Shown here in pieces: positions 5,757 through 58,647 of a stretch of 64,000 nt of DNA. This DNA comes from Candidatus Yanofskybacteria bacterium RIFCSPHIGHO2_01_FULL_41_21 (GTDB taxonomy: Bacteria > Patescibacteriota > Minisyncoccia > 2-02-FULL-40-12 > GWA2-44-9), in assembly GCA_001794025.1 (NCBI GenBank), contig MGJA01000012.1:8455-72454 (forward strand). The letters are read 5' to 3'. The notes below the pieces were generated by a model. It did no database searches. It saw nothing but the letters and a program-made list of their open reading frames with translations, and was not told the DNA's origin. The first letter of the stretch is position 1, and each line of letters opens with the position of its first letter. The position numbers were made by a program, and so were the translations under genes.

Positions 5757-5870
5757 CTGAAAACCTACTTTTTGACCCAGTAGCGGAAGGGGTCCCGCGA
5801 AGCGGGGAAACCGACGGTCCGCCAACTGGCGGATGGTTTCCCGGGTCTGGGGCAAATGAGCAGGTTTTCA
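5757..5870. repeat. Family A GC-rich palindromic multi-hairpin element, copy A1 (variant flanks CTGAAAACCT / AGGTTTTCAG)
   Basis: Core GACCCAGTAGCGGAAGGGGTCCCGCGAAGCGGGGAAACCGACGGTCCGCCAACTGGCGGATGGTTTCCCGGGTCTGGGG is shared with the 7583, 42909 and 59798 copies. Compensatory changes preserve the stems (GGAAACC/GGTTTCC versus GGAACC/GGTTCC; CCCGCGAAGCGGG versus CCCAGCGAAGCTGGG). Confidence 0.6.
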
Positions 5871-7582: not shown

Positions 7583-7762
7583 GTCACTTGGGGGTATACT
7601 CTTAGACCCAGTAGCGGAAGGGGTCCCAGCGAAGCTGGGGGAACCGACGGTCCGCCAGCTGGCGGATGGTTCCCCGGGTCTGGGGATAAGAGTATGCCCC
7701 AAGTGACGTTGATACAATTTGAGGAGCAACTGAGTCGGGAGTTGGGTGGAGGAAGTGGAATC
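7583..7762. repeat. Family A element copy A2 with 22-bp TIRs (GTCACTTGGGGGTATACTCTTA ... TAAGAGTATGCCCCAAGTGAC) and about 55-nt conserved tail
   Basis: Near-identical core to A1 and A4. Flanking TIRs and the GTTGGGTGGAGG tail are seen directly. Lies between rny and gpmI. Confidence 0.6.
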
Positions 7763-14736: not shown

Positions 14737-14747
14737 CCCAGGTAGTA

Positions 14748-14872
14748 GAAATCCGACCTGCGCTTTGTTTTGCTTACTAAAACGCAAGAATAATATCTCT
14801 ATTTTATCTATTAAATGCCACAAATAGTGAAGGTTAAGCGCATGCAAAACATGTCGGATTTTCACTACCTGG
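14748..14872. mobile_element. Family C MITE-like element, long copy (C-b)
   Basis: TIRs CCAGGTAGTAGAAATCCGAC ... GTCGGATTTTCACTACCTGG. Sits 11 nt upstream of the likely start of the transglycosylase gene. Confidence 0.55.
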
Positions 14873-19587: not shown

Positions 19588-20531
19588 TTTTGAAGTTTTT
19601 TCTTAAAGTCCTCTATCTCAACAACAGCAAGCGGGTCGGTGTTATTTGTTGTCGCCAATTCCAGAGCGGTCCAGTGAGCTATAATTACTGAAGAAATAAT
19701 TTTTTCAATCAAAGAAACACCAACAAGAGGTATCTTGACTACCAACATACCATGCGATTGGAATAATTTAGCGGTTAAATCCATCCGCTGACTGATACGA
19801 TTATCAATATCGTCTTGAAGAAATATAGAATGGAATCCGGCCGCCCAATCTCCTTGAAAGCCGGTAATTTCATTATGGTCTGCTTCGGGAAAACAATTGT
19901 TAAAAGCCGGCATCTTGGCGGTCTCATTTAAAATAATCTTCCAAATATACCCAAGTTCTTTTAAACTTTCTGATGTATAAATAAGGGGAATAGCCAAACC
20001 AATCTGGCGAGCAACTTGAGTACCTCCAGATTTTAACGCTTCAGCGTCAATATGTTGACATGGTGTCAATTCGGTAATATCAAAATCAATGAGAGTGGCT
20101 AATGCTATTAAATCATGAAAAACCATCATTCGTGGAGGCAAATCGCTGTGGGGTAACACGATATGAGGAACCTGGTTTTGATTGGCAATATTAATCAATT
20201 CTCCGCCAGTGGAAACAACTACTAGATTCAACCCATTTTCAATTGCTATTTTCGCCCCCGAGATTGGCTCGGTTGTATTTCCGGAATGAGAGTTTGTAAT
20301 AATAAGTGCCGAGGTAAGTACTTCTTCGTCAAATAATGGTAAATCATAATCGGAATGGATATGAATATCTAATTCCGGTTTCACCATATTTAAAATTCCG
20401 GTTGCTAACCGGGAACCGCCCATACCTAAAACGATAATTTTTTTGAACGGCCGAATCTTTTCTTTTCCGATAATTTCCGGTTTATATTCAAATTGTTTTG
20501 GAACCCCTAAAATTCCTTCTTCGTAGGTCAT
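19584..20531 (-). CDS. bifunctional phosphoglucose/phosphomannose isomerase (SIS domain, archaeal-type PGI/PMI)
   Basis: GMGGSRLATGILNMV and overall SIS-domain architecture. The ORF-track start 20561 runs through the Family D cassette; the true start is the cassette-supplied ATG at 20531 (MTYEEGILG). Confidence 0.75.
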   Translation of the reverse strand: MTYEEGILGVPKQFEYKPEIIGKEKIRPFKKIIVLGMGGSRLATGILNMVKPELDIHIHSDYDLPLFDEEVLTSALIITNSHSGNTTEPISGAKIAIENGLNLVVVSTGGELINIANQNQVPHIVLPHSDLPPRMMVFHDLIALATLIDFDITELTPCQHIDAEALKSGGTQVARQIGLAIPLIYTSESLKELGYIWKIILNETAKMPAFNNCFPEADHNEITGFQGDWAAGFHSIFLQDDIDNRISQRMDLTAKLFQSHGMLVVKIPLVGVSLIEKIISSVIIAHWTALELATTNNTDPLAVVEIEDFKKKLQN

Positions 20532-20638
20532 CCCGTTAGAAATTTTACGACCACCCACCATTTTGCGATGGTGGCTATGGTTAGTAATTTTAGTTAATAA
20601 TTTAATAAGATATTCCCGTAGGGTTAATTTCTAACGGG
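20529..20638 (-). mobile_element. Family D 112-nt promoter/leader/start-codon cassette, copy D1 (15-bp exact TIRs ATCCCGTTAGAAATT / AATTTCTAACGGGAT)
   Basis: Shared with 22202..22314 and 27780..27891. Read on the minus strand it has an entry hairpin, an AT-rich promoter-like stretch (the -10-like hexamer is poorly conserved in this copy), a conserved CCACCA-N8-UGGUGG leader hairpin and UUUCUAACGGG-ATG. It begins at the stop codon of the upstream gene and ends with the start codon of the downstream gene. Confidence 0.6.
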
Positions 20639-20639
20639 A

Positions 20640-21023
20640 TTATTGATTCAGTTTTGATTTGATTTCTTTGATATCGTTTCTAACTTCGTGAACTAAATCA
20701 TAGAGATGTTTAATATATTCATCTTCCTCACGTAAATCAATTTCTGTTTTTTCATCAATTCGTTTGTCGGCCTTGAGACCGGAGATAATTATATTTTCAC
20801 CAATAAAAAATGAGACGAATGTACCCGTCAAAAGCATAATAATAACACTTCCGACCAACCACCAACCAGGATGGATATGAGGGGCTAAATCCGCTAACTC
20901 CCAAACCGCTCGCCAGAATAAAACTATTGATACGCCACCAATTAATGCATAAGGCACTGGATGACGACTTAAGGCGTGCCGGGTTTTATCTTCTAAACGA
21001 TCAAAAAAAGAGAATAACTTCAT
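20640..21023 (-). CDS. hypothetical membrane protein
   Basis: 127 aa with two TM helices and a charged C-terminal helix. No family recognised. Confidence 0.5.
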   Translation of the reverse strand: MKLFSFFDRLEDKTRHALSRHPVPYALIGGVSIVLFWRAVWELADLAPHIHPGWWLVGSVIIMLLTGTFVSFFIGENIIISGLKADKRIDEKTEIDLREEDEYIKHLYDLVHEVRNDIKEIKSKLNQ

Positions 21024-21739: not shown

Positions 21740-22204
21740 CTACTTTACAGTAAGATTACCCTTCATACCCTGCTGGCGATGAGTGCCAATTGAACAATAA
21801 TATTCAAATGTCCCCACTTTATTGGCAACAAATTGGATGGTTTCTTGCTGACCACTTTGAAGAATTTTTGTGGCGGAATTAAACTCGTCAATTTTCCAAT
21901 CATGGGTACCCGATTCGTTTTTGAATATAATTACAACCGTATCTCCTTTGTTTACGGTTATTTGAGAAGGAGTGAAAGAAAATGGCTTACCGACAACAGT
22001 GAATGTCTTTATACTTGAGACCACGGTGGCAGTTGGAGAAGCTGAAGGAGAAACCGAAACGGTTGGAGAAACAGAGGGACTAACGGAAACTTCCGGAGAC
22101 GGACTACCGGTCGGATTGGCAACTTCTTTCGTTCCAATCTGGAACATATATGCTACCACTCCCAATAATATAACTATTACCACGAAAATGATTAATTTTT
22201 TCAT
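21740..22204 (-). CDS. cupredoxin (type-1 blue copper) domain protein with Ser/Pro-rich linker
   Basis: GTHDWKIDEF ... YYCSIGTHRQQGMKG supplies His, Cys, His and Met ligands in plastocyanin-like spacing. N-terminal TM anchor. The ORF-track N-terminus (MVCKISNG) is encoded by the Family D cassette; true start MKKLIIF at 22204. Confidence 0.7.
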   Translation of the reverse strand: MKKLIIFVVIVILLGVVAYMFQIGTKEVANPTGSPSPEVSVSPSVSPTVSVSPSASPTATVVSSIKTFTVVGKPFSFTPSQITVNKGDTVVIIFKNESGTHDWKIDEFNSATKILQSGQQETIQFVANKVGTFEYYCSIGTHRQQGMKGNLTVK

Positions 22205-22314
22205 CCCGTTAGAAATTTTACAAACCATCCACCATTTTGTAGTGGTGGAACTGGCAAGTAATCTTAATTAGTGATTTATTATAATATTCCCGTAGGGTTA
22301 ATTTCTAACGGGAT
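22202..22314 (-). mobile_element. Family D cassette, copy D2 (contains TATAAT -10-like hexamer)
   Basis: See 20529..20638. Supplies the ATG of the cupredoxin gene. Confidence 0.6.
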
Positions 22315-24609: not shown

Positions 24610-24836
24610 AATTGTAATTTTTGCTTTTTTGATAGTCGCTTAATTGCCACTTCACGTTTTAACGCCGTTGACCGATTTTTACATTTTTCAGTGTACACTA
24701 TTTTAATCACCTTATGCGACCTGGTATAATTTCCACCCTTCCCAAATTGATGTTCCTTAAACCTCCGCTTCATATCGGTCGTAATTCCGCAGTATAAACT
24801 GCCATCAACGCATTTTAATATATAAACAAGATACAT
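24582..24836 (-). CDS. GIY-YIG nuclease family protein
   Basis: YLVYILKCVDGSLYCGITTDMKRRFKEH: GIY...YIG with conserved Arg and Glu. Confidence 0.75.
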   Translation of the reverse strand: MYLVYILKCVDGSLYCGITTDMKRRFKEHQFGKGGNYTRSHKVIKIVYTEKCKNRSTALKREVAIKRLSKKQKLQLCLKYSKII

Positions 24837-27335: not shown

Positions 27336-27782
27336 TTATTTATTTTTTCTAAAATATTTTTCTAACCCCCAATAATTACCGGCCCTGAAAACGGCTAGTA
27401 CAATCAAGACCGCAATGTAAATAATATGCTCATCAACAATAAACGAATTTAAACTTGGAAAACCCGGGTAAGGAAACTTGAGAATTGGAAGATAATACAA
27501 AACCATAAGTAAAACCCCGAGAGGAGCACTCCAGCGAACAAATATACCTAAAATTAACGAAGCCCCCAGTAATGTTAAGCCCCATTCATTCATAAAATTA
27601 GTAATTGGCAACATTCCTGGAGAAGCAAACCAACTAAATAATTCCGGAAATGTTTTGGCCCCCTGTAAAAATTTCTCTGCTGACCAGGCCGGATTTAATA
27701 CCTTAGTAATCCCCGCCCAGAAAAAAACCCAGCCCAGCCCGATTCGTAAAACAAATAATGAAATTCTTTGTAATTTATTCAT
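27336..27782 (-). CDS. DoxX-family membrane protein
   Basis: LFVLRIGLGWVFFWAGITK is the DoxX signature. Start codon is the terminal CAT of the Family D cassette. Confidence 0.7.
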   Translation of the reverse strand: MNKLQRISLFVLRIGLGWVFFWAGITKVLNPAWSAEKFLQGAKTFPELFSWFASPGMLPITNFMNEWGLTLLGASLILGIFVRWSAPLGVLLMVLYYLPILKFPYPGFPSLNSFIVDEHIIYIAVLIVLAVFRAGNYWGLEKYFRKNK

Positions 27783-27891
27783 CCCGTTAGAAATTCACAA
27801 ACCGTTCACCATTTTGTGGTGGTAGGACCGGCAAGCAAATTTAATTAGTAATTTATTATGATATTCCCGTAGGGTTAATTTCTAACGGGAT
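27780..27891 (-). mobile_element. Family D cassette, copy D3 (CATAAT -10-like)
   Basis: See 20529..20638. Confidence 0.6.
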
Positions 27892-35188: not shown

Positions 35189-35218
35189 AGTAATTAGCGA
35201 TTAGAACCTAGGACTTAG
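35189..35218. repeat. left inverted repeat / heptamer array (AGTAATTAG-CGATTAG-AACCTAG-GACTTAG) flanking the four-helix-bundle gene
   Basis: Matches 35573..35602 in inverted orientation, with the two middle heptamers swapped. Confidence 0.45.
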
Positions 35219-35558
35219 CCCTTTTTATCATACTATTCAACATTTTCCTAACTTCAGTAAGTAAGTTAACTATATCAGTATAACCTGACTTTATATAGTT
35301 CAGTTCATATGCCAATATTAATTGGGATTCAATTTCACTTGTTGAACCAAATGCCATAGAAAGAAACTGCTGTCCCTCTTTAAATGTTCTTCTACTAAAT
35401 CCTTCTGCAATATTGGACATAACTGAAACAGAAGCTCTTCTGAGCTGATTAGTGAGCCCGTATATTTCAGACCTAGGAAATGATTCTGTTACCCGATATA
35501 TTTCCTTAGTAAGGACCAGCGATTTCTGCCAAACAATTAGATCTTTGTAAGAATTCAT
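35208..35558 (-). CDS. four-helix-bundle protein (family commonly found in 23S rRNA intervening sequences)
   Basis: DLIVWQKS...E.YGLTNQLRRASVSVMSNIAEGFSR...E..QFL.MA.GS..E...QL.LA is the characteristic pattern of this family. Confidence 0.8.
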   Translation of the reverse strand: MNSYKDLIVWQKSLVLTKEIYRVTESFPRSEIYGLTNQLRRASVSVMSNIAEGFSRRTFKEGQQFLSMAFGSTSEIESQLILAYELNYIKSGYTDIVNLLTEVRKMLNSMIKRAKS

Positions 35559-35572
35559 ATCCTTCTGTTTTT

Positions 35573-35602
35573 CTAAGTCCTAATCGCTAGGTTCTAATTA
35601 CT
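35573..35602. repeat. right inverted repeat of the four-helix-bundle cassette
   Basis: CTAAGTC-CTAATCG-CTAGGTT-CTAATTACT. Confidence 0.45.
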
Positions 35603-41083: not shown

Positions 41084-42897
41084 TGAAAAGATATTCGCTC
41101 ATCGCTGGCGTATTGATTGTTGTCACCAGTATTATCGCCATTGCCAGTGCTTGGCATGATTCCCCTATTGTTGACGAAATTCCTCACATCGGCGCCGGTT
41201 ATTCATACGTTTCCGGTCATACATATCAATTCAATCCCGAACATCCTCCGCTGGCAAAAGATTTTGCCGGTCTAGCCCTTCTGACACTCAAGATTAATCC
41301 CAACTTTCTTTCATCTTATAATATTTCTCACCAAGGAATAGTAAACGACCAATGGAATTTTGGACGACAACTGATATACCACTCCGGCGTTGATCCGGCT
41401 ACTATTGTTCATACTGCTAAACTCCCCCTTATATTATTCTTTATTTTATCCGGTTGGCTTATCTATGCTTGGGGAAAACGAACATATAATCACCGTACCG
41501 CTCTTCTGGCGGTATTTCTGTTTGCATTTTCTCCGACTATAATCGCTCACAGTCGATTTGTGACAACCGATGTCCCCGCTCTCTTTGGAATTTTATTCGC
41601 GACCTATTTTTTTCTTCGTTACCTGCGAGAACATAACACTTTAAATTTTTGGTTGGCTTCAGTCACATTCGGCGTCGCCCTGCTCACTAAGTTTTCAACA
41701 TTTCTCCTTATTCCCTACTTCTTACTCTTGGCTCTTGTTTGGGTCTGGATTCAAAACAATGAGTATATTAAACCCACTTTTCGTTTGCTTACAAGGACCG
41801 CCCTCGTAATGGTGGTGGGATTCGTTGTAATTGTTGGACCGATTTATCAATTACAAATTTTTAATTATCCACCCACTCAGCAAAAAAATGACACTGAAAT
41901 AATTCTTAGAAATTATCCCGTCCCCACCCTTTCTAAAGCCGTCATCTGGGCGTCGGACAAACCAGTACTTCGGTCATACGCTCAATGGGGTCTGGGAATG
42001 GCAATGGTTTTTCAACGCGCCGAAGGCGGTAACAATACTTATTTCCTTGGTCAATTCTCTAATAAATCATTTAAAGCATATTTCCCAGTTGTCTATGTCC
42101 TTAAAGAACCAATTCCGTTTTTAATTCTTCTTTTAAGCGCAATCTGGCTCGGTTGGAGGGCGTGGCGTAATAATCGCGAACCATTTAAAAATAAACTGCG
42201 TGACCGCTTTCCGGTTTTTGCTATGCTTCTTTGGATTTTTATCTATGTCGCCACAAGTATCAACGCCAATCTTAATATCGGCGTTCGCCATCTTATTCCA
42301 ATCTACGGATTTATCTTTATTCTAACGGCCGGGGCAATTGAAAAAATGATTACGGATTACGGATTACGGATTAAAACCGGATCGGGTAAATTCGTAATTC
42401 GTAATTCGCAATTCGTAATTGTTGGATTATTAATTTGGTATTTGGTTGAATTTATCTCCTTCTATCCTAACTACCTAACCTACTTTAATCAATTTGCTCT
42501 TTTCCGTCCTTCTTGGGTTTCAGAAGAACAAAAAAATTGGCCGAGAGGCGGATATAATTATGTCGTTGATTCTAATCTTGATTGGGGTCAAGATCTCTGG
42601 CGTTTGGACGATTTTATAAAACAAAATAAAATTCAAAAGATATATCTTGATTATTTCGGCTGGGCTGATCCAACCTTTTATCTCGGTGACGCCTTTGTTT
42701 GGATAGTGGGCGGAAAATACACCAGCGCCGAGTCCTTTCTTAAAGACAACCCCGCCGGCGGTTGGCTTGGCGTCTCCGCCAGTTTCTACCAAGAATCAAC
42801 CGTTAATCCCGCCAGTCCATATACCTGGCTTGAAAATATAAAACCGACGGCGATGGTTGGTAACTCAATTTTCGTCTGGCATATCACTCAACCTTAG
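41083..42897 (+). CDS. GT39/GT83-like membrane glycosyltransferase, second copy
   Basis: N-terminal HDSPIVDEIPHIGAGYSY...EHPPLAK, polytopic. Start overlaps the stop of the upstream gene. Contains an in-frame tandem/inverted heptamer insertion (see 42355). Confidence 0.7.
   Translation: MKRYSLIAGVLIVVTSIIAIASAWHDSPIVDEIPHIGAGYSYVSGHTYQFNPEHPPLAKDFAGLALLTLKINPNFLSSYNISHQGIVNDQWNFGRQLIYHSGVDPATIVHTAKLPLILFFILSGWLIYAWGKRTYNHRTALLAVFLFAFSPTIIAHSRFVTTDVPALFGILFATYFFLRYLREHNTLNFWLASVTFGVALLTKFSTFLLIPYFLLLALVWVWIQNNEYIKPTFRLLTRTALVMVVGFVVIVGPIYQLQIFNYPPTQQKNDTEIILRNYPVPTLSKAVIWASDKPVLRSYAQWGLGMAMVFQRAEGGNNTYFLGQFSNKSFKAYFPVVYVLKEPIPFLILLLSAIWLGWRAWRNNREPFKNKLRDRFPVFAMLLWIFIYVATSINANLNIGVRHLIPIYGFIFILTAGAIEKMITDYGLRIKTGSGKFVIRNSQFVIVGLLIWYLVEFISFYPNYLTYFNQFALFRPSWVSEEQKNWPRGGYNYVVDSNLDWGQDLWRLDDFIKQNKIQKIYLDYFGWADPTFYLGDAFVWIVGGKYTSAESFLKDNPAGGWLGVSASFYQESTVNPASPYTWLENIKPTAMVGNSIFVWHITQP
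42355..42420. repeat. intragenic tandem-inverted heptamer repeat (GATTACG x2.5 then AATTCGT x4) in-frame within the GT39-like gene
   Basis: acggattacggattacggattaaaaccggatcgggtaaattcgtaattcgtaattcgcaattcgtaatt, encoding ITDYGLRIKTGSGKFVIRNSQFVIV. Confidence 0.45.
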
Positions 42898-42908
42898 TGG
42901 TTTTCTTG

Positions 42909-43127
42909 CGGCTTCCGCTCGGAGTTCGCTCCCTCCACCCCAAACTCGATTATCCATCAAATTGTGTCAACGTCACTTGGGGTATACTCTTATCCCCAGA
43001 CCCAGGGAACCAGTCCCGTCGGTTCCCGAGGCGATTCTAGAGGCGGCTAAAGCACGCCTCCAAGAAACTTCGCCTTGACCAAAGGGTCCCCTTCCGCTAC
43101 TGGGTCTAAGAGTATACCCCAAGTGAC
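42909..43127. repeat. Family A element copy A3 (inverted orientation; GCGAAGC hairpin replaced by a 56-nt nested-hairpin insert)
   Basis: TIRs GTCACTTGGGGTATACTCTTA ... TAAGAGTATACCCCAAGTGAC. Core and tail match A2/A4 in reverse complement. Confidence 0.6.
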
Positions 43128-43171
43128 TTAAAATTAAATTACTCTCTTTTTTGGGTATTTTTTTAAATAAA

Positions 43172-43210
43172 AAAAGACCCCGTCGGAAGTCGCAATGTGG
43201 ACGGGGCTTT
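43172..43210 (-). terminator. rho-independent terminator (strong on minus strand)
   Basis: GACCCCGTC-GGAAGTCGCAATGTG-GACGGGGC. On the minus strand it is followed by UCUUUUUUUAUUU. Confidence 0.6.
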
Positions 43211-43700
43211 GTAGATTTTGGAGAGTAACGGGTCCGGACGGTGCGAACGAGTGATTTCCTCGTCGCACCGTCCGGCCGCCAGCCGGGCGATCGGCACGGA
43301 TCTTGGGCGCGGAGGTGTCACACCGCCCTCACCTTTAGCCGACCGCCCCGACTTCGTTTTCTCTGGCCGCCACAGAATTGTCATTGGTGCCGGTACGGGT
43401 ACGGGGAGCTCTCCCGACCCATGCGGCCCACCAAGCAATTGGTGAGGGCCAGACGTTCATCGCGATTGAGTCGCGACACTTACAGACCGGGTAAATAAAG
43501 GTCTCTATGAGAACATCGTCGAACCCCTCCTGGGGTGTACCTTTATCCACACACGGTCTTTTTAATGACCTGGGTTGCTGGAGACAGTTGGACGTCTCGG
43601 AGTTTTTTATTTCTCCGGCTCCCTTAGGCCCAGGTCAATTCATGAGCAACGGGCTCGCAAAAACCAATACCTACTCGCCCGTCCGTAGTTATACGGAGGA
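43211..43700 (-). ncRNA. GC-rich (about 60% GC) roughly 500-nt non-coding island with multiple stable hairpins; candidate structured ncRNA of unknown class, or a decayed GC-rich mobile insertion
   Basis: No credible ORF. Composition is very different from the roughly 38% GC surroundings. Has a 15-bp hairpin GGACGGUGCGAACGAG/CUCGUCGCACCGUCC and ends at the 43172 terminator on the minus strand. I tested tmRNA, RNase P and SRP consensus motifs by eye and could not place them. Confidence 0.3.
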
Positions 43701-44031
43701 GGGCTAACGCTCGCTATATATACGAACTTCTCTATGTTTCTATCGGCCTATTCAACTAAATAAAGTGATGATGCCTGAAAATAGCGTATTTACTGGTTTT
43801 TGCGAGCCCATTACTGGGCTCTTTATAAAGAACAGACCTATACAACCATTATAGCACCCTGCGCCTAGGAAGTCAACCCCGCCGTTGAGAAGCGACATTT
43901 AGGGCTAATTAATGGCTTTAAACCTATGTAAATTGTTCCCACCATTATTTTACCTATAGTCCATTTGAAGAATATTCATCGCTTCTCAACGGCGGGGTCA
44001 ATACCCCACAAAATTGGTATAACATAAGGGG

Positions 44032-44886
44032 CTATTTGAAGTATACTCGGTCATCAAAGCGTAAATCTATGTATTGGGGTTTAAGTGTTCCATTGGCCAT
44101 TTTCTGGGTTCTAAATATACGAAACGTATCAAGCTGGTTTTGAAGATTTGAATCAATACTAAACTTAACTAAATAACTTGCTCCAATCGGTAAGATGGGG
44201 TCATTAACCAGAACATCAAACTCTGTGTATGTATCAACGGGGATGGTAATATTTTTAACTTTAACACCTTGCTCAATCAAAATTGGGACGACAGTTTGGA
44301 TGGCTTTAAGAAATTTTGAATAGACCGTTAATGGAGACGTTGATGCCGATTGAATTCGCATATCATTAACGTTGAGTAAAAGCACGCCCGATGATTGAAT
44401 CGCTTGGCCAAACGTCACACCATCGTGGTCAAAGTATCGACAATCGGGAATTTCTTGAGATGAACCCGTAGAAACAAAACACCAGACCCCTTCTGCCCGA
44501 CGTTCGGTCACGGATATTTTTAAGGTATGCAAATATTTTTTCTTAACGGAAACATTCTCTATAAATGAGAATCGGGAAATTAATTCAGCGACTAAAGAAT
44601 CAGATTGAACAAAAAATATATCTCGTCCTATTGGAATACCGAACACTTTACGATTCAGATTCTCATCAATGACCCCCTGAACATCTCTCTGGTGCCCGTC
44701 AGTCAATCCTTCATATGAAATAGTGGTTACTCTCAACCACGGCGCATAAAAAAGAGCGTAACCAATGCCGACAAGAATAACGACAACAACAAAAATAATT
44801 AATCCTATTTTTATCTCAAAACGATGGCGTCGTTTAGACGCCAATTTATCGTTGTGTTTAAATTTTTTAATATCAACAGGACGCAT
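44032..44886 (-). CDS. ftsQ: cell division protein FtsQ/DivIB-like (TM + POTRA)
   Basis: Single TM (IGLIIFVVVVILVGIGYALF) followed by a POTRA-like region. The ORF-track N-terminus MAVMCG is encoded by the TIR of the 44885 element; start is probably MRPVDIKKF at 44886. Confidence 0.6.
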   Translation of the reverse strand: MRPVDIKKFKHNDKLASKRRHRFEIKIGLIIFVVVVILVGIGYALFYAPWLRVTTISYEGLTDGHQRDVQGVIDENLNRKVFGIPIGRDIFFVQSDSLVAELISRFSFIENVSVKKKYLHTLKISVTERRAEGVWCFVSTGSSQEIPDCRYFDHDGVTFGQAIQSSGVLLLNVNDMRIQSASTSPLTVYSKFLKAIQTVVPILIEQGVKVKNITIPVDTYTEFDVLVNDPILPIGASYLVKFSIDSNLQNQLDTFRIFRTQKMANGTLKPQYIDLRFDDRVYFK

Positions 44887-45022
44887 CCCGCACATAACAG
44901 CCATAAATTGCTTTAAGGCAGTACTACGTGTTTAGTACTCGCATGCAACTTCACTATAGCTGTGATTATTAAACTAAGTTAGTCCCGCAATTAGTACTGC
45001 AAATGGCTGTTATGTGCGGGAT
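44885..45022. mobile_element. about 138-nt element with perfect 20-bp TIRs (ATCCCGCACATAACAGCCAT / ATGGCTGTTATGTGCGGGAT) bridging the serS stop and ftsQ start
   Basis: TIRs seen directly. The right TIR contains the last 3 codons and stop of serS; the left TIR overlaps the ftsQ ATG. The interior has AT-rich -10-like hexamers on the minus strand. Confidence 0.55.
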
Positions 45023-46281
45023 TTGATTTCTTTGAATCCGCAATATTTTTGGAGGACTTTGGGGATTTTAATGGAACCGTTTTTTTGTTGGAAGTTTTCT
45101 ATGATGGCAATTGGCCAGCGACTTGAATAATTAATGGCCGTGCCGTTAAGTGTGTGAACAAATTCAGTATCGCCGTTTTCTTTTCGGTAACGAATATTTA
45201 ATCGGCGGGCCTGAAAGTCAGTGCAATTAGAAGCACTGGTAATTTCTCCGTATCCGCCGGTTGATGAGGCGGAGTCGCCTTTCATGACCATCCAGGCCTC
45301 AATATCAAATTTACGGTAAGCCGGCCCACCTAGATCTTGGCTCGCCACGTCTATCACACGATATGGGAATCCAAGTCCACTAGCAATTTCACGTTCAATG
45401 GTTAAAATTTCCTGATGCATTACTTCACTTTCTTCGGGTTTACAAAAAACAAACATCTCTAATTTCACGAATTGATGGACCCGATACATACCTTTTGAAG
45501 TCCGACCATAAGCTCCGGCTTCGGTACGAAAACAATGAGACAAAGCCACATATTTCTTTGGACCCTTAGAAAGATCTAGAATTTCGTTGGCGTGATATCC
45601 CCCGATTGTAATCTCGGCTGTTCCTATTAAAGATAGGTCATTATTATCAATTGAATATATTTGTGTTTCCGGGCCGCGGGGATTAAATCCGATTCCTTCC
45701 AAAATTTCGTCTTTGGCTAAATCGGGGGTCTCCATTAATTCATAACCATGTTTGGTAACAATATCAATGCCGTACTGAATCAGGGCCTGATTTAATCGGA
45801 CCAAGTCACCTTTAGAAAAGAAAAACTTATTACCGGCTACTTTGGTACCACGTTCAAAATCTATCAGACCTAAATCCAGCAAAATGGCTTCGTGGTCTTT
45901 TGGTTCAAAATTAAACTTTGGTATTTTGCCTTCGGTTGCCAGGACTTTGAAATCCTCCTCTCCACCGATGGGAGTTTCGGGATGGGTTAAATTGGGTACT
46001 GCTTTTAATAATTTATTATAATCAATCTCAATAGTTGCCAACTCTTTTTCAAGCGTCGCTATCTGATCACCGACTTGGCGCATTTTGGCGATATCTTCCT
46101 CGCTCGGTTTGCCTTTGGAACCCTGATTTCTTTGGGCCCGTAATTCTTCAATTTGAGCCATATGCGCCCGACGATCACGATCAAGCGTTAAAAGATTATC
46201 CAAATCCAAAACCACACCTCTGTTTTTCAAATTTTCTTTTATCAGTTCCGCGTGTTCGCGAATATATTTTATATCAAGCAT
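45010..46281 (-). CDS. serS: seryl-tRNA synthetase
   Basis: N-terminal coiled-coil arm. Class II motifs 2 (FRTEAGAYGR-like: CFRTEAGAYGRTSKGMYRVHQF) and 3 (GGYG...). 423 aa. Confidence 0.9.
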   Translation of the reverse strand: MLDIKYIREHAELIKENLKNRGVVLDLDNLLTLDRDRRAHMAQIEELRAQRNQGSKGKPSEEDIAKMRQVGDQIATLEKELATIEIDYNKLLKAVPNLTHPETPIGGEEDFKVLATEGKIPKFNFEPKDHEAILLDLGLIDFERGTKVAGNKFFFSKGDLVRLNQALIQYGIDIVTKHGYELMETPDLAKDEILEGIGFNPRGPETQIYSIDNNDLSLIGTAEITIGGYHANEILDLSKGPKKYVALSHCFRTEAGAYGRTSKGMYRVHQFVKLEMFVFCKPEESEVMHQEILTIEREIASGLGFPYRVIDVASQDLGGPAYRKFDIEAWMVMKGDSASSTGGYGEITSASNCTDFQARRLNIRYRKENGDTEFVHTLNGTAINYSSRWPIAIIENFQQKNGSIKIPKVLQKYCGFKEIKSRT

Positions 46282-46282
46282 T

Positions 46283-46322
46283 TTTTAGGATTTAGAACTT
46301 AGGAATTAGGACTTAGAACTTA
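46283..46322. repeat. tandem heptamer array NNNNTAG (GATTTAG-AACTTAG-GAATTAG-GACTTAG-AACTTAG) between serS and lysS
   Basis: Same heptamer family as the arrays flanking the four-helix-bundle gene. Confidence 0.35.
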
Positions 46323-46353
46323 GTTTCTGACCCTATGTCCTAATGGCTAATTA

Positions 46354-47688
46354 CTAGTGGCTATCTTTGGGTCGCATGGTTGGGAAAAGAATAACTTCGC
46401 GCAGGGAATGGGAATCGGTTAAAAGGGCGACGAGGCGGTCAATGCCGATACCGAAGCCGGCTGAAGGTGGCATGCCGTATTCAAGGGCTTCAATGAAATC
46501 ATTGTCCATGCGTTGAGCTTCTTCATCACCTTTGGCGCGCATATTTTCTTGGGCCTTAAATCTTTCCTGTTGATCAATCGGGTCGTTTAATTCGGTGAAG
46601 GCCTTAACTAGCTCTGTTCCGCCGGCATAAAATTGAAAGGCCTCTACGACATCCGTACCGGGCTTTAATTTAGTAAGAGGTAACATATCTTTTGGATAGT
46701 CCATAACAAATGTTGGTTCAATCAGTGTCCCCCGAATTTTTTCTTTAAAAACAGTGTCCTCCAAACTGCCAACGTCCTGCATGAGTTCTTTGTAGGTAAT
46801 TCGGCGAAATGGTTTTTTGAATCTTTCAGGCGCAATTGTAACCATTAAGTCCTCAATAAAATCCATACCCCAATTATAGTCCTTATAAGCGACATAAAAT
46901 TCTACGGCTGAAAATTCAGGATTGTGTTCTCGATCAATGCCTTCATTTCTAAAATTAGTGGTAAATTCAAAAACCCGATCTAACCCGCCAACCAAAAGAC
47001 GCTTTAAATATAGTTCCGGCGCAATACGAAGAAACATATCTTGATCAAGAGCATTTAAATGGGTCTTGAACGGGCGGGCAGAAGCACCACCATATAACGG
47101 TTGCAGAGTCGGTGTGGTTACTTCCAAAAATTCATGTTTCATTAAATAGTGACGAATGGCTTGGATAATCTCGGCGCGCTTGATAAATTTCTCGCGAACT
47201 TCAGTACTCATCAATAAATCAAGATAGCGTTTACGGAAACGTTCTTCCACATCAATCAATCCGTGCCACTTTTCCGGCAACGGCAAAAGGGTCTTGGTCA
47301 ATATCCCTATTTCGGTGGCTTCTATAGTGCGTTCGTCTTTTTTGGTTTTGAAAAGAGTTCCCCTAACCTCAATGATGTCACCAATATCAATCAGTTCATT
47401 AAAAAATTTAAACCCATCCGCGCCAAGGGTGTCTTCTTTGGCACAACCTTGGATTTTTGAACCATCTTCATTCAAGTCAAAGAAAATAAGTCCGCCATGT
47501 CCACGTTGGGCCATAATCCTGCCAGCTAGGGTTACCTCTTTTTTTGACTCTGCAAGTTCATCAAATCTTTCCAATGCTTCAACCACGCTCATTGAGCGTT
47601 TTGTTGTCGCCGGATACGGATCTATCCCCATCTTCCGTATTTCCTTCAACTTATCCATTTTTACTTGCCGAATATCATCAAGAGCCAT
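46354..47688 (-). CDS. lysS: lysyl-tRNA synthetase (class II)
   Basis: OB-fold N-domain and class II catalytic core (motif 2 FRNEG, motif 3 GIGIDRL). Start is likely the internal Met (MALDDIRQ) rather than the ORF-track 47727. Confidence 0.9.
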   Translation of the reverse strand: MALDDIRQVKMDKLKEIRKMGIDPYPATTKRSMSVVEALERFDELAESKKEVTLAGRIMAQRGHGGLIFFDLNEDGSKIQGCAKEDTLGADGFKFFNELIDIGDIIEVRGTLFKTKKDERTIEATEIGILTKTLLPLPEKWHGLIDVEERFRKRYLDLLMSTEVREKFIKRAEIIQAIRHYLMKHEFLEVTTPTLQPLYGGASARPFKTHLNALDQDMFLRIAPELYLKRLLVGGLDRVFEFTTNFRNEGIDREHNPEFSAVEFYVAYKDYNWGMDFIEDLMVTIAPERFKKPFRRITYKELMQDVGSLEDTVFKEKIRGTLIEPTFVMDYPKDMLPLTKLKPGTDVVEAFQFYAGGTELVKAFTELNDPIDQQERFKAQENMRAKGDEEAQRMDNDFIEALEYGMPPSAGFGIGIDRLVALLTDSHSLREVILFPTMRPKDSH

Positions 47689-47878
47689 CCGAGTAGTAGA
47701 AGTTCCGGAATAATAATACAGACCCAAGCAGCCGGAACTTCACTACTTGGTTCATAGTATTAAGTATATAGTATTACGTATTATGTATCCAGAGCTTTAA
47801 AATATCAAATAAAACTAAACGCCGTCTCGGAACACCTCCTTGTTAGTGATGGCGTTTAGTGAGACGGCGGAAATTTGG

Positions 47879-53884: not shown

Positions 53885-54020
53885 CCGGGATAGTAGAAAT
53901 TCGACCTGCGCTTTAGGTTTTTATACCTAAATGCGTACTATCGAATATCATTAAAAACATAATTATGACAAATATTTAATCTAGGCGCCAAAAAAACCCA
54001 GTCGAATTTTCACTACCCGG
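53885..54020. mobile_element. Family C MITE-like element, long copy (C-c), abutting the mreC ATG
   Basis: TIRs CCGGGATAGTAGAAATTCGAC ... GTCGAATTTTCACTACCCGG. Interior shares GACCTGCGCTTTAGGTTTTT and AAACCCAGTCG with C-e. Confidence 0.55.
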
Positions 54021-57940: not shown

Positions 57941-58518
57941 TAGCTTGTCATTAATTCTTGCTCTTTTTTCTTAACCATCTCGTCAATCTTTTTTTGGAGG
58001 TCGTCTACGATTTTTTGAAGTTCGTCTTTGGCTTTGAAGGCCTCATCTTCGCGGGCAGTTTTTTCTTTGACGGCGGTTTGAACTTTTTTAAGAATATCTT
58101 CACGGGTTTGGCGGATGCGGATGCGGACTTCTTCTATTTTTTGATGGAGAATTTTGGTGAATTCTTTGCGTCGTTCTTCATTTAAGGGTGGAATAGTGAG
58201 ACGAATAGTATGACCGTCATTAGCCGGATTCAAACCCAACGAGCTTTCACGAATCGCTTTTTCAATTAATGGCACGACAGTCGCATCCCAGGGTTGAATC
58301 ACAATCACCCGCGGTTCCGGCGCACTAATACTGGCCAGTTCTTTGACTCGTGAACGCGCGCCCAAATATTCAACTTGAATATCTTCTACCAATGATGGGT
58401 TAGCTCGGCCTGTCCGAATTGAGGCCGCTTCCATTTTGGCCATTTCTAAAGCCGAATCAAAATCCTTTTTCCTAGATGCGATTAATTCCTTATACACCAG
58501 GTAGTAGAAATCCGACAT
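57940..58518 (-). CDS. frr: ribosome recycling factor
   Basis: IRTGRANPSLVEDIQVEYLG and C-terminal helical arm. First 8 codons (MSDFYYLV) are encoded by the TIR of Family C element C-e. Confidence 0.85.
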   Translation of the reverse strand: MSDFYYLVYKELIASRKKDFDSALEMAKMEAASIRTGRANPSLVEDIQVEYLGARSRVKELASISAPEPRVIVIQPWDATVVPLIEKAIRESSLGLNPANDGHTIRLTIPPLNEERRKEFTKILHQKIEEVRIRIRQTREDILKKVQTAVKEKTAREDEAFKAKDELQKIVDDLQKKIDEMVKKKEQELMTS

Positions 58519-58632
58519 GCACCTTAGGTTTTAGACCTAACCATGCAACATCAAATTACTTGTTTATATTTAAATTCCCAGATAGTTGATATAATCGGTG
58601 CTACTAAAACCCAGTCGGATTTTCACTACCTG
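58497..58632. mobile_element. Family C MITE-like element, long copy (C-e), overlapping the frr start
   Basis: TIRs CCAGGTAGTAGAAATCCGAC ... GTCGGATTTTCACTACCTGG. Interior contains TTGATATAAT (a -10-like sequence). Confidence 0.55.
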
Positions 58633-58647
58633 GTACATAATCTTATC

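Follow-up and report, generated by a model that had tools for sequence, protein, structure and literature searches.

Correia elements (CREE) of Neisseria and the ERIC repeats of enterobacteria are MITEs (miniature transposable elements with inverted repeats) that fold as long hairpins in mRNA (PMC10969869, PMC3184786). Neisseria REP2 and the Borrelia upstream repeats, 120-150 bp long, lie upstream of unrelated genes, hold the start codon within the repeat and form stem-loops (PMC3184786). The Rickettsia RPE are palindromic mobile repeats that coding sequences tolerate, in their interior or at their ends, with residues added to the host proteins (PMC3184786, PMC10969869). Here we describe an element that bears some likeness to each of these: a 138-bp palindromic insert between serS (seryl-tRNA synthetase) and an ftsQ-like gene in a 64,000-nt stretch (the window) of contig MGJA01000012.1 from Candidatus Yanofskybacteria bacterium RIFCSPHIGHO2_01_FULL_41_21. 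An initial annotation, made from the letters of the window, had read this segment as an inserted element bounded by terminal inverted repeats (TIRs), and the analysis presented below supports that reading.

The complete element spans 44885..45022 on the minus strand, 138 bp bounded by 20-bp arms. The arms, ATCCCGCACATAACAGCCAT at 44885-44904 and ATGGCTGTTATGTGCGGGAT at 45003-45022, are complementary at 20/20 positions and enclose 98 nt, as the initial annotation had stated; comparison across families favours slightly narrower boundaries, namely 19-bp arms of the form TCCCGC...GCGGGA at 44886-45021. Within the window the arm 20-mer is confined to these two positions, and 0/100 shuffles gave a match even when three mismatches were allowed. 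Folding of the element region as RNA yields -58.4 kcal/mol (z = -6.75). The interior contains no ORF, and its GC content of 36.7% against 40.9% for the window makes it only marginally AT-rich, less so than first described. Rfam returned only a tRNA for the window at the gathering threshold and nothing significant in a permissive search (E up to 5) across 42800-45100, so that neither the element nor the neighbouring GC-rich region has a family there. As in the Correia and ERIC elements, the overall length lies in the 100-200 bp range, the TIRs are of ~20-26 bp and perfect or nearly so, no transposase gene is carried and several copies exist; polymorphism between strains and, for most copies of the family, a short target duplication are further points in common, co-transcription with the flanking genes would be another, and the TIR duplex of Correia elements is a substrate for RNase III.

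Both flanking genes have ends that are made of element sequence. In gene orientation, the 5' arm (45003..45022, minus strand) carries the last three codons of serS, TCC CGC ACA, and its TAA stop (45012-45010), so that the gene (45010..46281, minus strand; Pfam Seryl_tRNA_N and tRNA-synt_2b) ends ...AAA TCC CGC ACA TAA (...KSRT*); serS in element-free relatives ends ...KSKK* or ...KAKK*. The SRT* ending inside the arm, already pointed out in the initial annotation, recurs in upstream genes at three independent sites: window serS, locus L017/L021, where the upstream gene ends ...EESRT* and the next gene, rluA, begins at the element-made ATG, and L033, where the ending is ...TKSRT*. The 3' arm (44885..44904, minus strand) terminates in AT, which together with the G at 44884 forms the ftsQ start codon (44886-44884). 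The list of open reading frames has ftsQ at 44032-44904, beginning MAVMCG-MRPVD. However, FtsQ of 19 element-free relatives starts with M/V-RP(V/I/T/F)D in all but one shorter prediction (P0025). The homologous N-termini thus place the real start at the ATG at 44886-44884, giving a gene of 44032..44886 (minus strand; Pfam POTRA_1, FtsQ type; product identical to a RIFCSPHIGHO2_01_FULL Yanofskybacteria entry), and identify MAVMCG as the arm read in frame, which bears out the initial proposal. The associated claim that the arm donates the ftsQ ATG stands for the terminal A (or AT), whereas the G comes from the duplicated target. Altogether, a single element gives serS its stop and ftsQ the first base or bases of its ATG, the upstream copy of the target being gone.

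The gene order lysS-serS-ftsQ-(long non-coding region)-PMT is conserved among relatives, and their junctions were inspected for empty sites, as the initial annotation had proposed. In L005, L007 and L008 the serS stop directly abuts the ftsQ start (TAGATG, TAGGTG, TAAGAGTG; for example ...AAGTCCAAGAAATAGATGAGACCC), and the junction of contig P0011 is empty as judged from gene coordinates. By contrast, L001, whose serS is ~90-98% identical to that of the window, has the same element at serS|ftsQ (137/138 positions identical). L001, a genome ~93-98% identical to the window, holds a second copy that separates its pair of PMT genes; the corresponding site of the window, GTTAAATAATGAAAAG, is empty. 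The infA|rpmJ junction is empty in L026 (TAATATGAAAGT) and filled in L011, L018, L019, L022 and L027; the filled site of L011 reads TAATATGAA|TCCCGC...GCGGGA|TGAAAGT, and its net gain over L026 is the element plus one repeat. Two further relatives, L002 (2868-3000) and L006 (2400-2500), have other AT-rich inserts at serS|ftsQ, built from AAATCCTAAA / TTTAGGATTT units. The L002 insert forms a fold that reaches from the end of serS to the beginning of ftsQ (z = -3.6), whereas the fold of the L006 insert is not significantly better than those of shuffles (z = -1.1). With three different inserts in three lineages, serS|ftsQ is a turnover hot spot.

Copies elsewhere were sought by exact matching of 15-20 nt of arm sequence in genomes other than that of the window. 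The exact 20-mer was found at 8 loci of GTDB genomes, distributed over three other Yanofskybacteria metagenome-assembled genomes (2-3 loci each) and one contig binned as Saccharibacteria; a two-arm pattern, made of two 15-nt arm cores, added 14 metagenome loci. After deduplication these 22 loci represent 14 distinct junctions with elements of 128-145 bp, 2-3 copies per genome, all bounded by perfect TIRs of ~19-20 bp (TCCCGCACATAA...TTATGTGCGGGA); at least four Yanofskybacteria genomes besides that of the window are represented, together with metagenomes. Among some short elements the interiors are 86-93% identical at different sites; between subfamilies identity drops to 42-60%, and the subfamily comprising the window and L001 copies is no more than 66% identical to any other. 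An 18-mer of the arm had 0 matches in viral contigs. The copy on the Saccharibacteria-binned contig (L015, CAYTBY010000043.1) lies behind a perfect TTGACA-17-TAATAT promoter, which itself stands 7 nt before the old ATG of a gene for an RHH protein; its presence there is due to either mis-binning or transfer between lineages of the candidate phyla radiation (CPR).

The junctions share a distinctive signature. A typical copy reads ...ATGAA|TCCCGC...GCGGGA|TGAA..., and 9/14 short elements are flanked by a perfect repeat, which measures 5 nt in one case and otherwise 4 nt. The repeat varies along with the target, being TGAA at six junctions and TGGA, TGGAA or TGAG at others, and the target, TGNN, comprises the last two bases of a start codon and the two bases that follow. 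At 13 of the 14 short-family sites, ...GCGGGAT plus G constitutes the downstream start codon. On sequence grounds, then, the terminal A of the element and the duplicated TGNN are shown to remake the downstream ATG in frame. In the repeat-flanked copies the old ATG stays upstream and opens a 15-21-codon upstream open reading frame (uORF) that ends inside the element. Because of rotational ambiguity the boundary can be drawn as a GA repeat with 20-bp arms or a TGAA repeat with 19-bp arms. We prefer the 4-bp repeat with 19-bp arms since it accommodates L015 and L031 without a mutated first base, and also fits two other hairpin families of the window (Family C and I9, see below). Duplications of 2 bp (GA) and 6 bp (ATGAAT) were considered and set aside, though 2 bp may hold for ATGAA targets.

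All copies have the same orientation: a covariance model of the family (R1) scores them at 114-176 bits on the forward and 37-62 bits on the reverse strand, the window element giving 143 bits on the minus and 55 bits on the plus strand. The genes that follow are unrelated (ssb, rpmJ, GTPase, uvrD, RHH gene, hpf, yidD, rluA, doxX, PMT and ftsQ), with Pfam identifying SSB, L36, GTPase, UvrD, RHH, HPF, YidD, RluA and DoxX among their products. At rpmJ and uvrD, orthologous insertions have been kept across diverged genomes. Read along the sense strand, each of the three frames of the window copy meets a stop no later than element position 52 (TAA at 11, 30 and 52), and we attribute the tolerance of the element at gene boundaries to this termination of incoming frames and to the rebuilding of the start.

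These features distinguish the family from the systems mentioned at the outset. Correia elements duplicate TA, insert in either orientation, lie mostly in ordinary intergenic DNA and carry promoters and an IHF site. In the present family, the repeats are TGNN and hold the start codon, the orientation is the same at 14/14 sites, no promoter match is found, the ends rebuild the ATG and supply stops, and the arm sequences are unrelated. Correia elements are characterized by a 26-bp TIR sequence of their own; with arms ATCCCGCACATAACAGCCAT and TGNN repeats, membership in that family was rejected. REP2 supplies a promoter and a ribosome-binding site and comes without TIRs, described target duplication or empty-site evidence; the present elements, in contrast, contribute to the ATG no more than their terminal A or AT, bring no ribosome-binding site and would bury the start in a 20-bp helix. 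RPE are inserted in frame and translated through, whereas members of this family sit at gene boundaries, stop the frame after three codons (SRT*) and restart the next gene.

In total, 20/20 TIRs, a length of 138 bp (the core of a generic MITE being under ~400 bp), no interior ORF, multiple dispersed copies and empty sites are generic MITE features; the exception is an identified transposase. The ~294-bp elements described below may be cognates: their TIRs agree with those of the short family in the outer 13 nt, and they encode a GIY-YIG nuclease, a putative mobiliser. Our preferred reading, to which we assign a probability of roughly 0.75, is that the element is mobile DNA of a non-autonomous, MITE-like kind, and that its family is specific to Yanofskybacteria and the Patescibacteria related to them. 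The window copy would derive from a normal insertion at ATGCG followed by a 17-nt deletion between TCC/ATCC microhomologies; such a deletion would remove the repeat and give exactly the sequence observed.

Several observations weigh against this reading. The window copy has no direct repeat (its flanks are CAAA and TGCG), and its insertion is deduced from the family and from the empty sites of relatives, which are only 62-69% identical in FtsQ. There is just one copy within the 64-kb window, and the genomes scanned were others than its own. Since the searches required exact arm matches, the invariance of the arms is partly a matter of ascertainment. For ATGAA targets the repeat length is ambiguous between 2, 4 and 6 bp, and a single orientation finds no explanation in an element with symmetric ends. 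Pfam detected no transposase, integrase or recombinase among ~45 window ORFs, nor does a classical transposase stand beside any copy in the fetched loci. Likewise, a search of these loci for solo or widely spaced arms uncovered no autonomous insertion sequence.

An alignment of 17 copies, analysed with RNAalifold, revealed a conserved structure inside the arms. Helix X is formed by GCAGUAC (44994..45000, minus strand) and GUACUGC (44918..44924, minus strand), with changes on both sides at 3/7 pairs and 95% of cells paired. Helix Y pairs AAUUGC (44987..44992, minus strand) with GCAAUU (44906..44911, minus strand) and crosses X in a pseudoknot topology. Its compensatory variants include GUUGC/GCAAC, AUUGC/GCAAU and AGUGC/GCACU; columns 40/131 are GC in 10 copies and AU in 6, and columns 41/130 are UA in 15 and GC in 2. 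Covariation over the whole structure exceeds that of all 500 shuffles and of every slid control. In the arms, the outer 13 nt (ATCCCGCACATAA) are conserved between subfamilies and long relatives, whereas the inner 7 nt vary yet stay complementary (CAGCCAT/ATGGCTG, ACACTAT/ATAGTGT, ATACTAC/GTAGTAT). This pattern points to sequence recognition of the tip combined with selection for pairing. Changes in the left arm are mostly compatible with G-U pairing.

In the serS-ftsQ mRNA, pairing of the arms over 20 bp would bury the AUG of ftsQ in a helix. The UAA of serS occupies arm positions 11-13, and a ribosome that terminates there would cover and melt the whole 5' arm and so free the AUG; the mRNA channel of the ribosome and its helicase activity provide a basis for such unwinding. 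In this way the original stop/start translational coupling would be kept despite 105 extra nucleotides, and in the canonical copies the 15-21-codon uORF opened by the retained old ATG would do the same job. Consistent with this scheme, keeping the 5' arm single-stranded raises the predicted probability of being unpaired around the ftsQ AUG from 0.09 to 0.46. Initiation at ftsQ would then probably depend, through the hairpin, on translation of serS. The arrangement recalls the coat-replicase region of phage MS2, where a downstream start is sequestered by pairing with the upstream ORF and opened by translating ribosomes. By analogy, the helix would play the same part here, except that it would have arrived with a mobile element instead of evolving on site. 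Shine-Dalgarno sequences precede almost none of the window genes. In many of them a -10-like box lies 6-8 nt ahead of the ATG, which suggests leaderless or very-short-leader mRNAs, and ~42% of starts are ATGA. Part of the Parcubacteria lacks the anti-Shine-Dalgarno motif (PMC9297842). With Shine-Dalgarno sequences nearly absent and their counterpart missing from part of the group, accessibility of the start codon should dominate initiation.

Cleavage of the perfect duplex by RNase III would be an alternative or additional route to a free AUG. If this were its main role, the element would be a processing site of the Correia type, splitting serS and ftsQ messages and leaving ftsQ with a short unstructured leader. 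The perfect 20-bp helix, devoid of bulges, suits the enzyme, and Correia elements are a documented case of MITEs that it cuts at their TIRs (PMC10969869). Such a function is compatible with a mobile origin of the element, but it assigns no role to the retained upstream ATG and uORF of most copies, and we regard it as possible though rather doubtful.

The conserved structure also raises the question of whether the elements are mainly cis-regulatory RNAs, structured leaders or translational switches kept for the benefit of the host and spread by recombination rather than by selfish transposition. The constant sense orientation immediately 5' of a start codon, the inner helices with compensatory changes (one of them pseudoknotted), the G-U tolerance of the left arm and the retention of the rpmJ and uvrD insertions could all be read in this sense. 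However, the downstream genes have no common function, target-dependent repeats and empty sites indicate insertion events, and invariant arms around interiors of 42-60% identity are typical of transposon ends recognised by a protein. As no Rfam family matches either, we find a primarily regulatory nature unlikely.

Slightly less probable still is a mobile promoter cassette, in which ftsQ would be transcribed from inside the element and the hairpin would never form on that transcript. The initial annotation had noted -10-like hexamers facing ftsQ; the 3' arm reads TGTTAT-GTGCGGG-ATG, a spacing like that of leaderless-type promoters of the clade (such as TAATAT-CAGCGGGA-ATG in L034), and promoters are known in Correia and other MITEs. 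Yet a promoter and terminator scan found no sigma-70-like match within the element, the candidate hexamers are without the critical A at position 2, and the window TATAGT is not conserved in the family. The proposed internal promoter is therefore not supported.

Searching the fetched loci for diverged arms brought up an element of 294 bp (L029) with perfect arms ATCCCGCACATAAACACTAT/ATAGTGTTTATGTGCGGGAT and, between them, an ORF for an 84-aa GIY-YIG protein (PF01541, E = 2.4e-12). Four elements of ~294 bp (L029, L031/L032, L033, L034) have this layout and share the outer 13 nt of the arm. In each, the ORF starts 3-5 nt past the 5' arm and stops within the 3' arm; ...GCGGGA|TG opens the next gene at 4/4 of these GIY-YIG-bearing relatives, two of which (2/4) are flanked by perfect repeats, TGTG and TGGA. 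Homologues of the L029 ORF carry PF01541 as well, and the GIY-YIG domain of the long relatives shows a weak match to PDB 1ZG2 (a UPF0213 protein). The small protein has >230 homologues, and source-named matches are nearly all from Patescibacteria lineages. The window itself contains a free-standing small GIY-YIG ORF at 24639-24836 (minus strand), between PGA_cap and DEAD-helicase genes; it has an extended -10 box of its own and no flanking arms, and its 3' end overlaps the start of the next gene.

A stand-alone GIY-YIG domain wedged between conserved host genes, as in these long relatives, is reminiscent of the T4 seg genes and of UPF0213/YhbQ-like proteins. Free-standing homing endonuclease genes, however, are not known to carry 20-bp TIRs or to cause target duplications, and they use one cognate site, whereas in the long relatives hairpin-forming arms surround the ORF, the junctions that it occupies differ, and companions that lack it share its ends. 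We also considered that a GIY-YIG homing-endonuclease cassette might have decayed on site and left the short element as its remnant. There are indeed GIY-YIG elements that agree with it in outer arm sequence and junction architecture, but the short interiors bear no similarity to theirs (z -1.4 to 2.5), and the interiors that are 86-93% identical at different sites imply that the elements multiplied as short elements; this origin is thus very unlikely, and simple derivation of the short elements by internal deletion of the long ones was rejected for the same dissimilarity of interiors. Finally, a terminator or attenuator stem of serS that happens to span both gene ends has next to nothing left to recommend it: the hairpin is very stable, directly follows serS and is single-copy in the window, but the stem is followed by the ATG and by the mRNA bases GCGUCC rather than a U-tract, the loop is of 98 nt, the scan found no terminator, relatives have zero intergenic space at the junction, and the recurrence of the arms in metagenomes and in genomes of other Yanofskybacteria, at 14 junctions that are unrelated, removes the uniqueness of the 20-mer that, according to the initial annotation, would have spoken for such a stem.

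Two other families of hairpin elements in the window, ~60-140 nt long, also have a 3' arm that ends at a start codon. Family C (14738-14872, 53885-54020, 47689-47750 and 58497-58633, minus strand) has arms CCNGGUAGUGAAA...UUUCUACUACCNGG ending at start codons that include those of mreC and lysS (46354-47727, minus strand, the upstream neighbour of serS); its 4-bp repeats are GATG and TGTA, and the last G of one copy makes a GTG start. Family D comprises three 111-nt elements, ATCCCGUUAGAAAUU...AAUUUCUAACGGGAU (27781-27891, 22203-22314 and 20530-20640, minus strand), which end at the start codons of three unrelated genes, respectively doxX, one for a cupredoxin, and pgi. The upstream copy of the ATG is mutated to ATT or ATA, and the inner hairpin shows compensatory changes. 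When both families were sought in the fetched loci, they were found in the window only. At the doxX start, the window has a Family D element and L012 a member of the present short family, with the same left flank, a swap that suggests turnover of elements at occupied sites. The resemblance to Families C and D perceived in the initial annotation thus extends to a common architecture; Family D gives a weak R1 score (E about 0.005), and GIY-YIG genes are enclosed by C-type arms as well as by those of the present family. The C-type arms, CCNGGTAGTG...CTACTACCNGG as in window Family C, surround such ORFs in L014 and L038, and a Harrisonbacteria contig (L035) has a C-type element with a GIY-YIG ORF in tandem with a short C-type element.

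From these comparisons the 84-aa GIY-YIG nuclease may be the enzyme that mobilises the elements. More broadly, we tentatively propose, at less than even odds, that the serS-ftsQ element and Families C and D are ORF-less members of an undescribed group of compact Patescibacteria elements. The autonomous form, of ~294 bp, would consist of 19-20-bp hairpin-forming arms and an 84-aa GIY-YIG gene; insertion would be directional, at A|TGNN in start codons, with a 4-bp duplication, regeneration of host stop and start codons and preservation of coupled downstream translation. The stand-alone nuclease would act in a transposition-like manner, possibly on an extruded hairpin or cruciform. Besides the dissimilar interiors, it speaks against such a role that GIY-YIG enzymes are not known as DNA transposases, and homing via double-strand-break repair is not expected to give target duplications.

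Other described classes were examined and rejected. Intrinsic terminators, which have a G+C-rich stem, a short loop and a U-tract behind it, were dismissed for the reasons given above. The attC sites of integrons have R''/R' core sites RYYYAAC...GTTRRRY at cassette 3' ends and work with IntI; here the termini are TCCCGC...GCGGGA, and there is no integrase among the window ORFs. PATE, derived from IS200/IS605, have subterminal hairpins, no TIRs and no target duplication and insert 3' of a fixed tetra- or pentanucleotide, whereas in the present elements the TIRs are perfect and the repeats change along with the target, and the window ORFs include no TnpA or TnpB. In the literature searched, the coverage of which was incomplete, neither MITEs that regenerate start codons nor GIY-YIG mini-elements bounded by TIRs were described, an absence of evidence only. 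In conclusion, the serS-ftsQ insert is best described as a MITE-like palindromic element with an unusual start-codon specificity, a single orientation and an internal pseudoknot.

Some features of the surroundings deserve mention. The ORF-free 1.1 kb at 42898-44031 (minus strand) have 50% GC against 41% for the window and are conserved in five relatives. A minus-strand promoter, TTGACT-17-TGCTATAAT (~43876-43845), is followed by ~600 nt of conserved GC-rich sequence and a terminator at ~43190-43150; with no Rfam match, the region is a candidate for an unknown large non-coding RNA (ncRNA), judging from its sequence features. An inverted repeat, 43645-43674 / 43786-43815, forms a conserved long-range helix inside it. 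Just past the terminator, positions 42972-43127 are taken up by a palindromic element, shared with L002 only, whose 28-nt arms (GTCACTTGGGGTATACTCTTA...) show 93% complementarity. The hairpin I9 (43876-43998) lies within the -35 box of the promoter just described and rebuilds it; its arms, ACCCCGCCGTTGAGAAGCGA, match at 20/20 positions around an 83-nt loop. The 4-bp duplication TTGA was checked against four empty sites; I9 is absent from L002, L005, L007 and L008, and L001 has at this position a shorter relative with arms ACCCCGCACATAAACTGCCC. A first alignment of the serS-ftsQ element with I9 gave weak similarity (AYCCCGC ends and a GGACUA motif), and further comparisons showed I9 to be a sister family with a 4-bp duplication of its own.

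Elsewhere in the window, a 24-bp inverted repeat (ATTAGAACCTAGGACTTAGCCCTT...) at 35200-35598 surrounds a gene that follows or precedes dnaX on one side and a gtrA-like gene on the other and whose 116-aa product is a '23S rRNA intervening sequence protein' (PF05635); here, too, inverted repeats bound a cassette of a single gene. A ~50-nt repeat (GGGGAACCGACGGTCCGCCAGCTGGCGGATGGTTCCCCGGGTCTGG) is present in two copies, at 5800-5860 and 7630-7690, on either side of the RNase Y gene. Upstream of serS (46282-46353), the window has TCCTAA repeats similar to the units of the L002 and L006 inserts. The window lacks a gene, of 102-127 aa, that L001 (373-681), L007 and L008 have in addition between their lysS and serS.

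CPR genomes are tiny and nearly devoid of intergenic DNA, and how selfish DNA persists in them is poorly understood. The family described here represents one route: the element lands on a start codon, duplicates it, terminates the incoming reading, restarts the next gene and probably keeps the two coupled. In doing so it makes new gene boundaries, as in L017/L021, where both a new stop and a new start have arisen between two genes, and it corrupts annotation through MAVMCG N-terminal extensions and SRT C-termini on unrelated proteins. The elements are also natural experiments on start-codon selection in an organism largely without Shine-Dalgarno sequences. As a lead, the link to elements whose sole gene is that of a GIY-YIG protein is credible, and a new class of mobile DNA could come out of it. 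If the 84-aa protein is indeed the mobilising enzyme, these would be new and extremely small autonomous DNA elements, and the protein a candidate for a minimal structure-guided nuclease.

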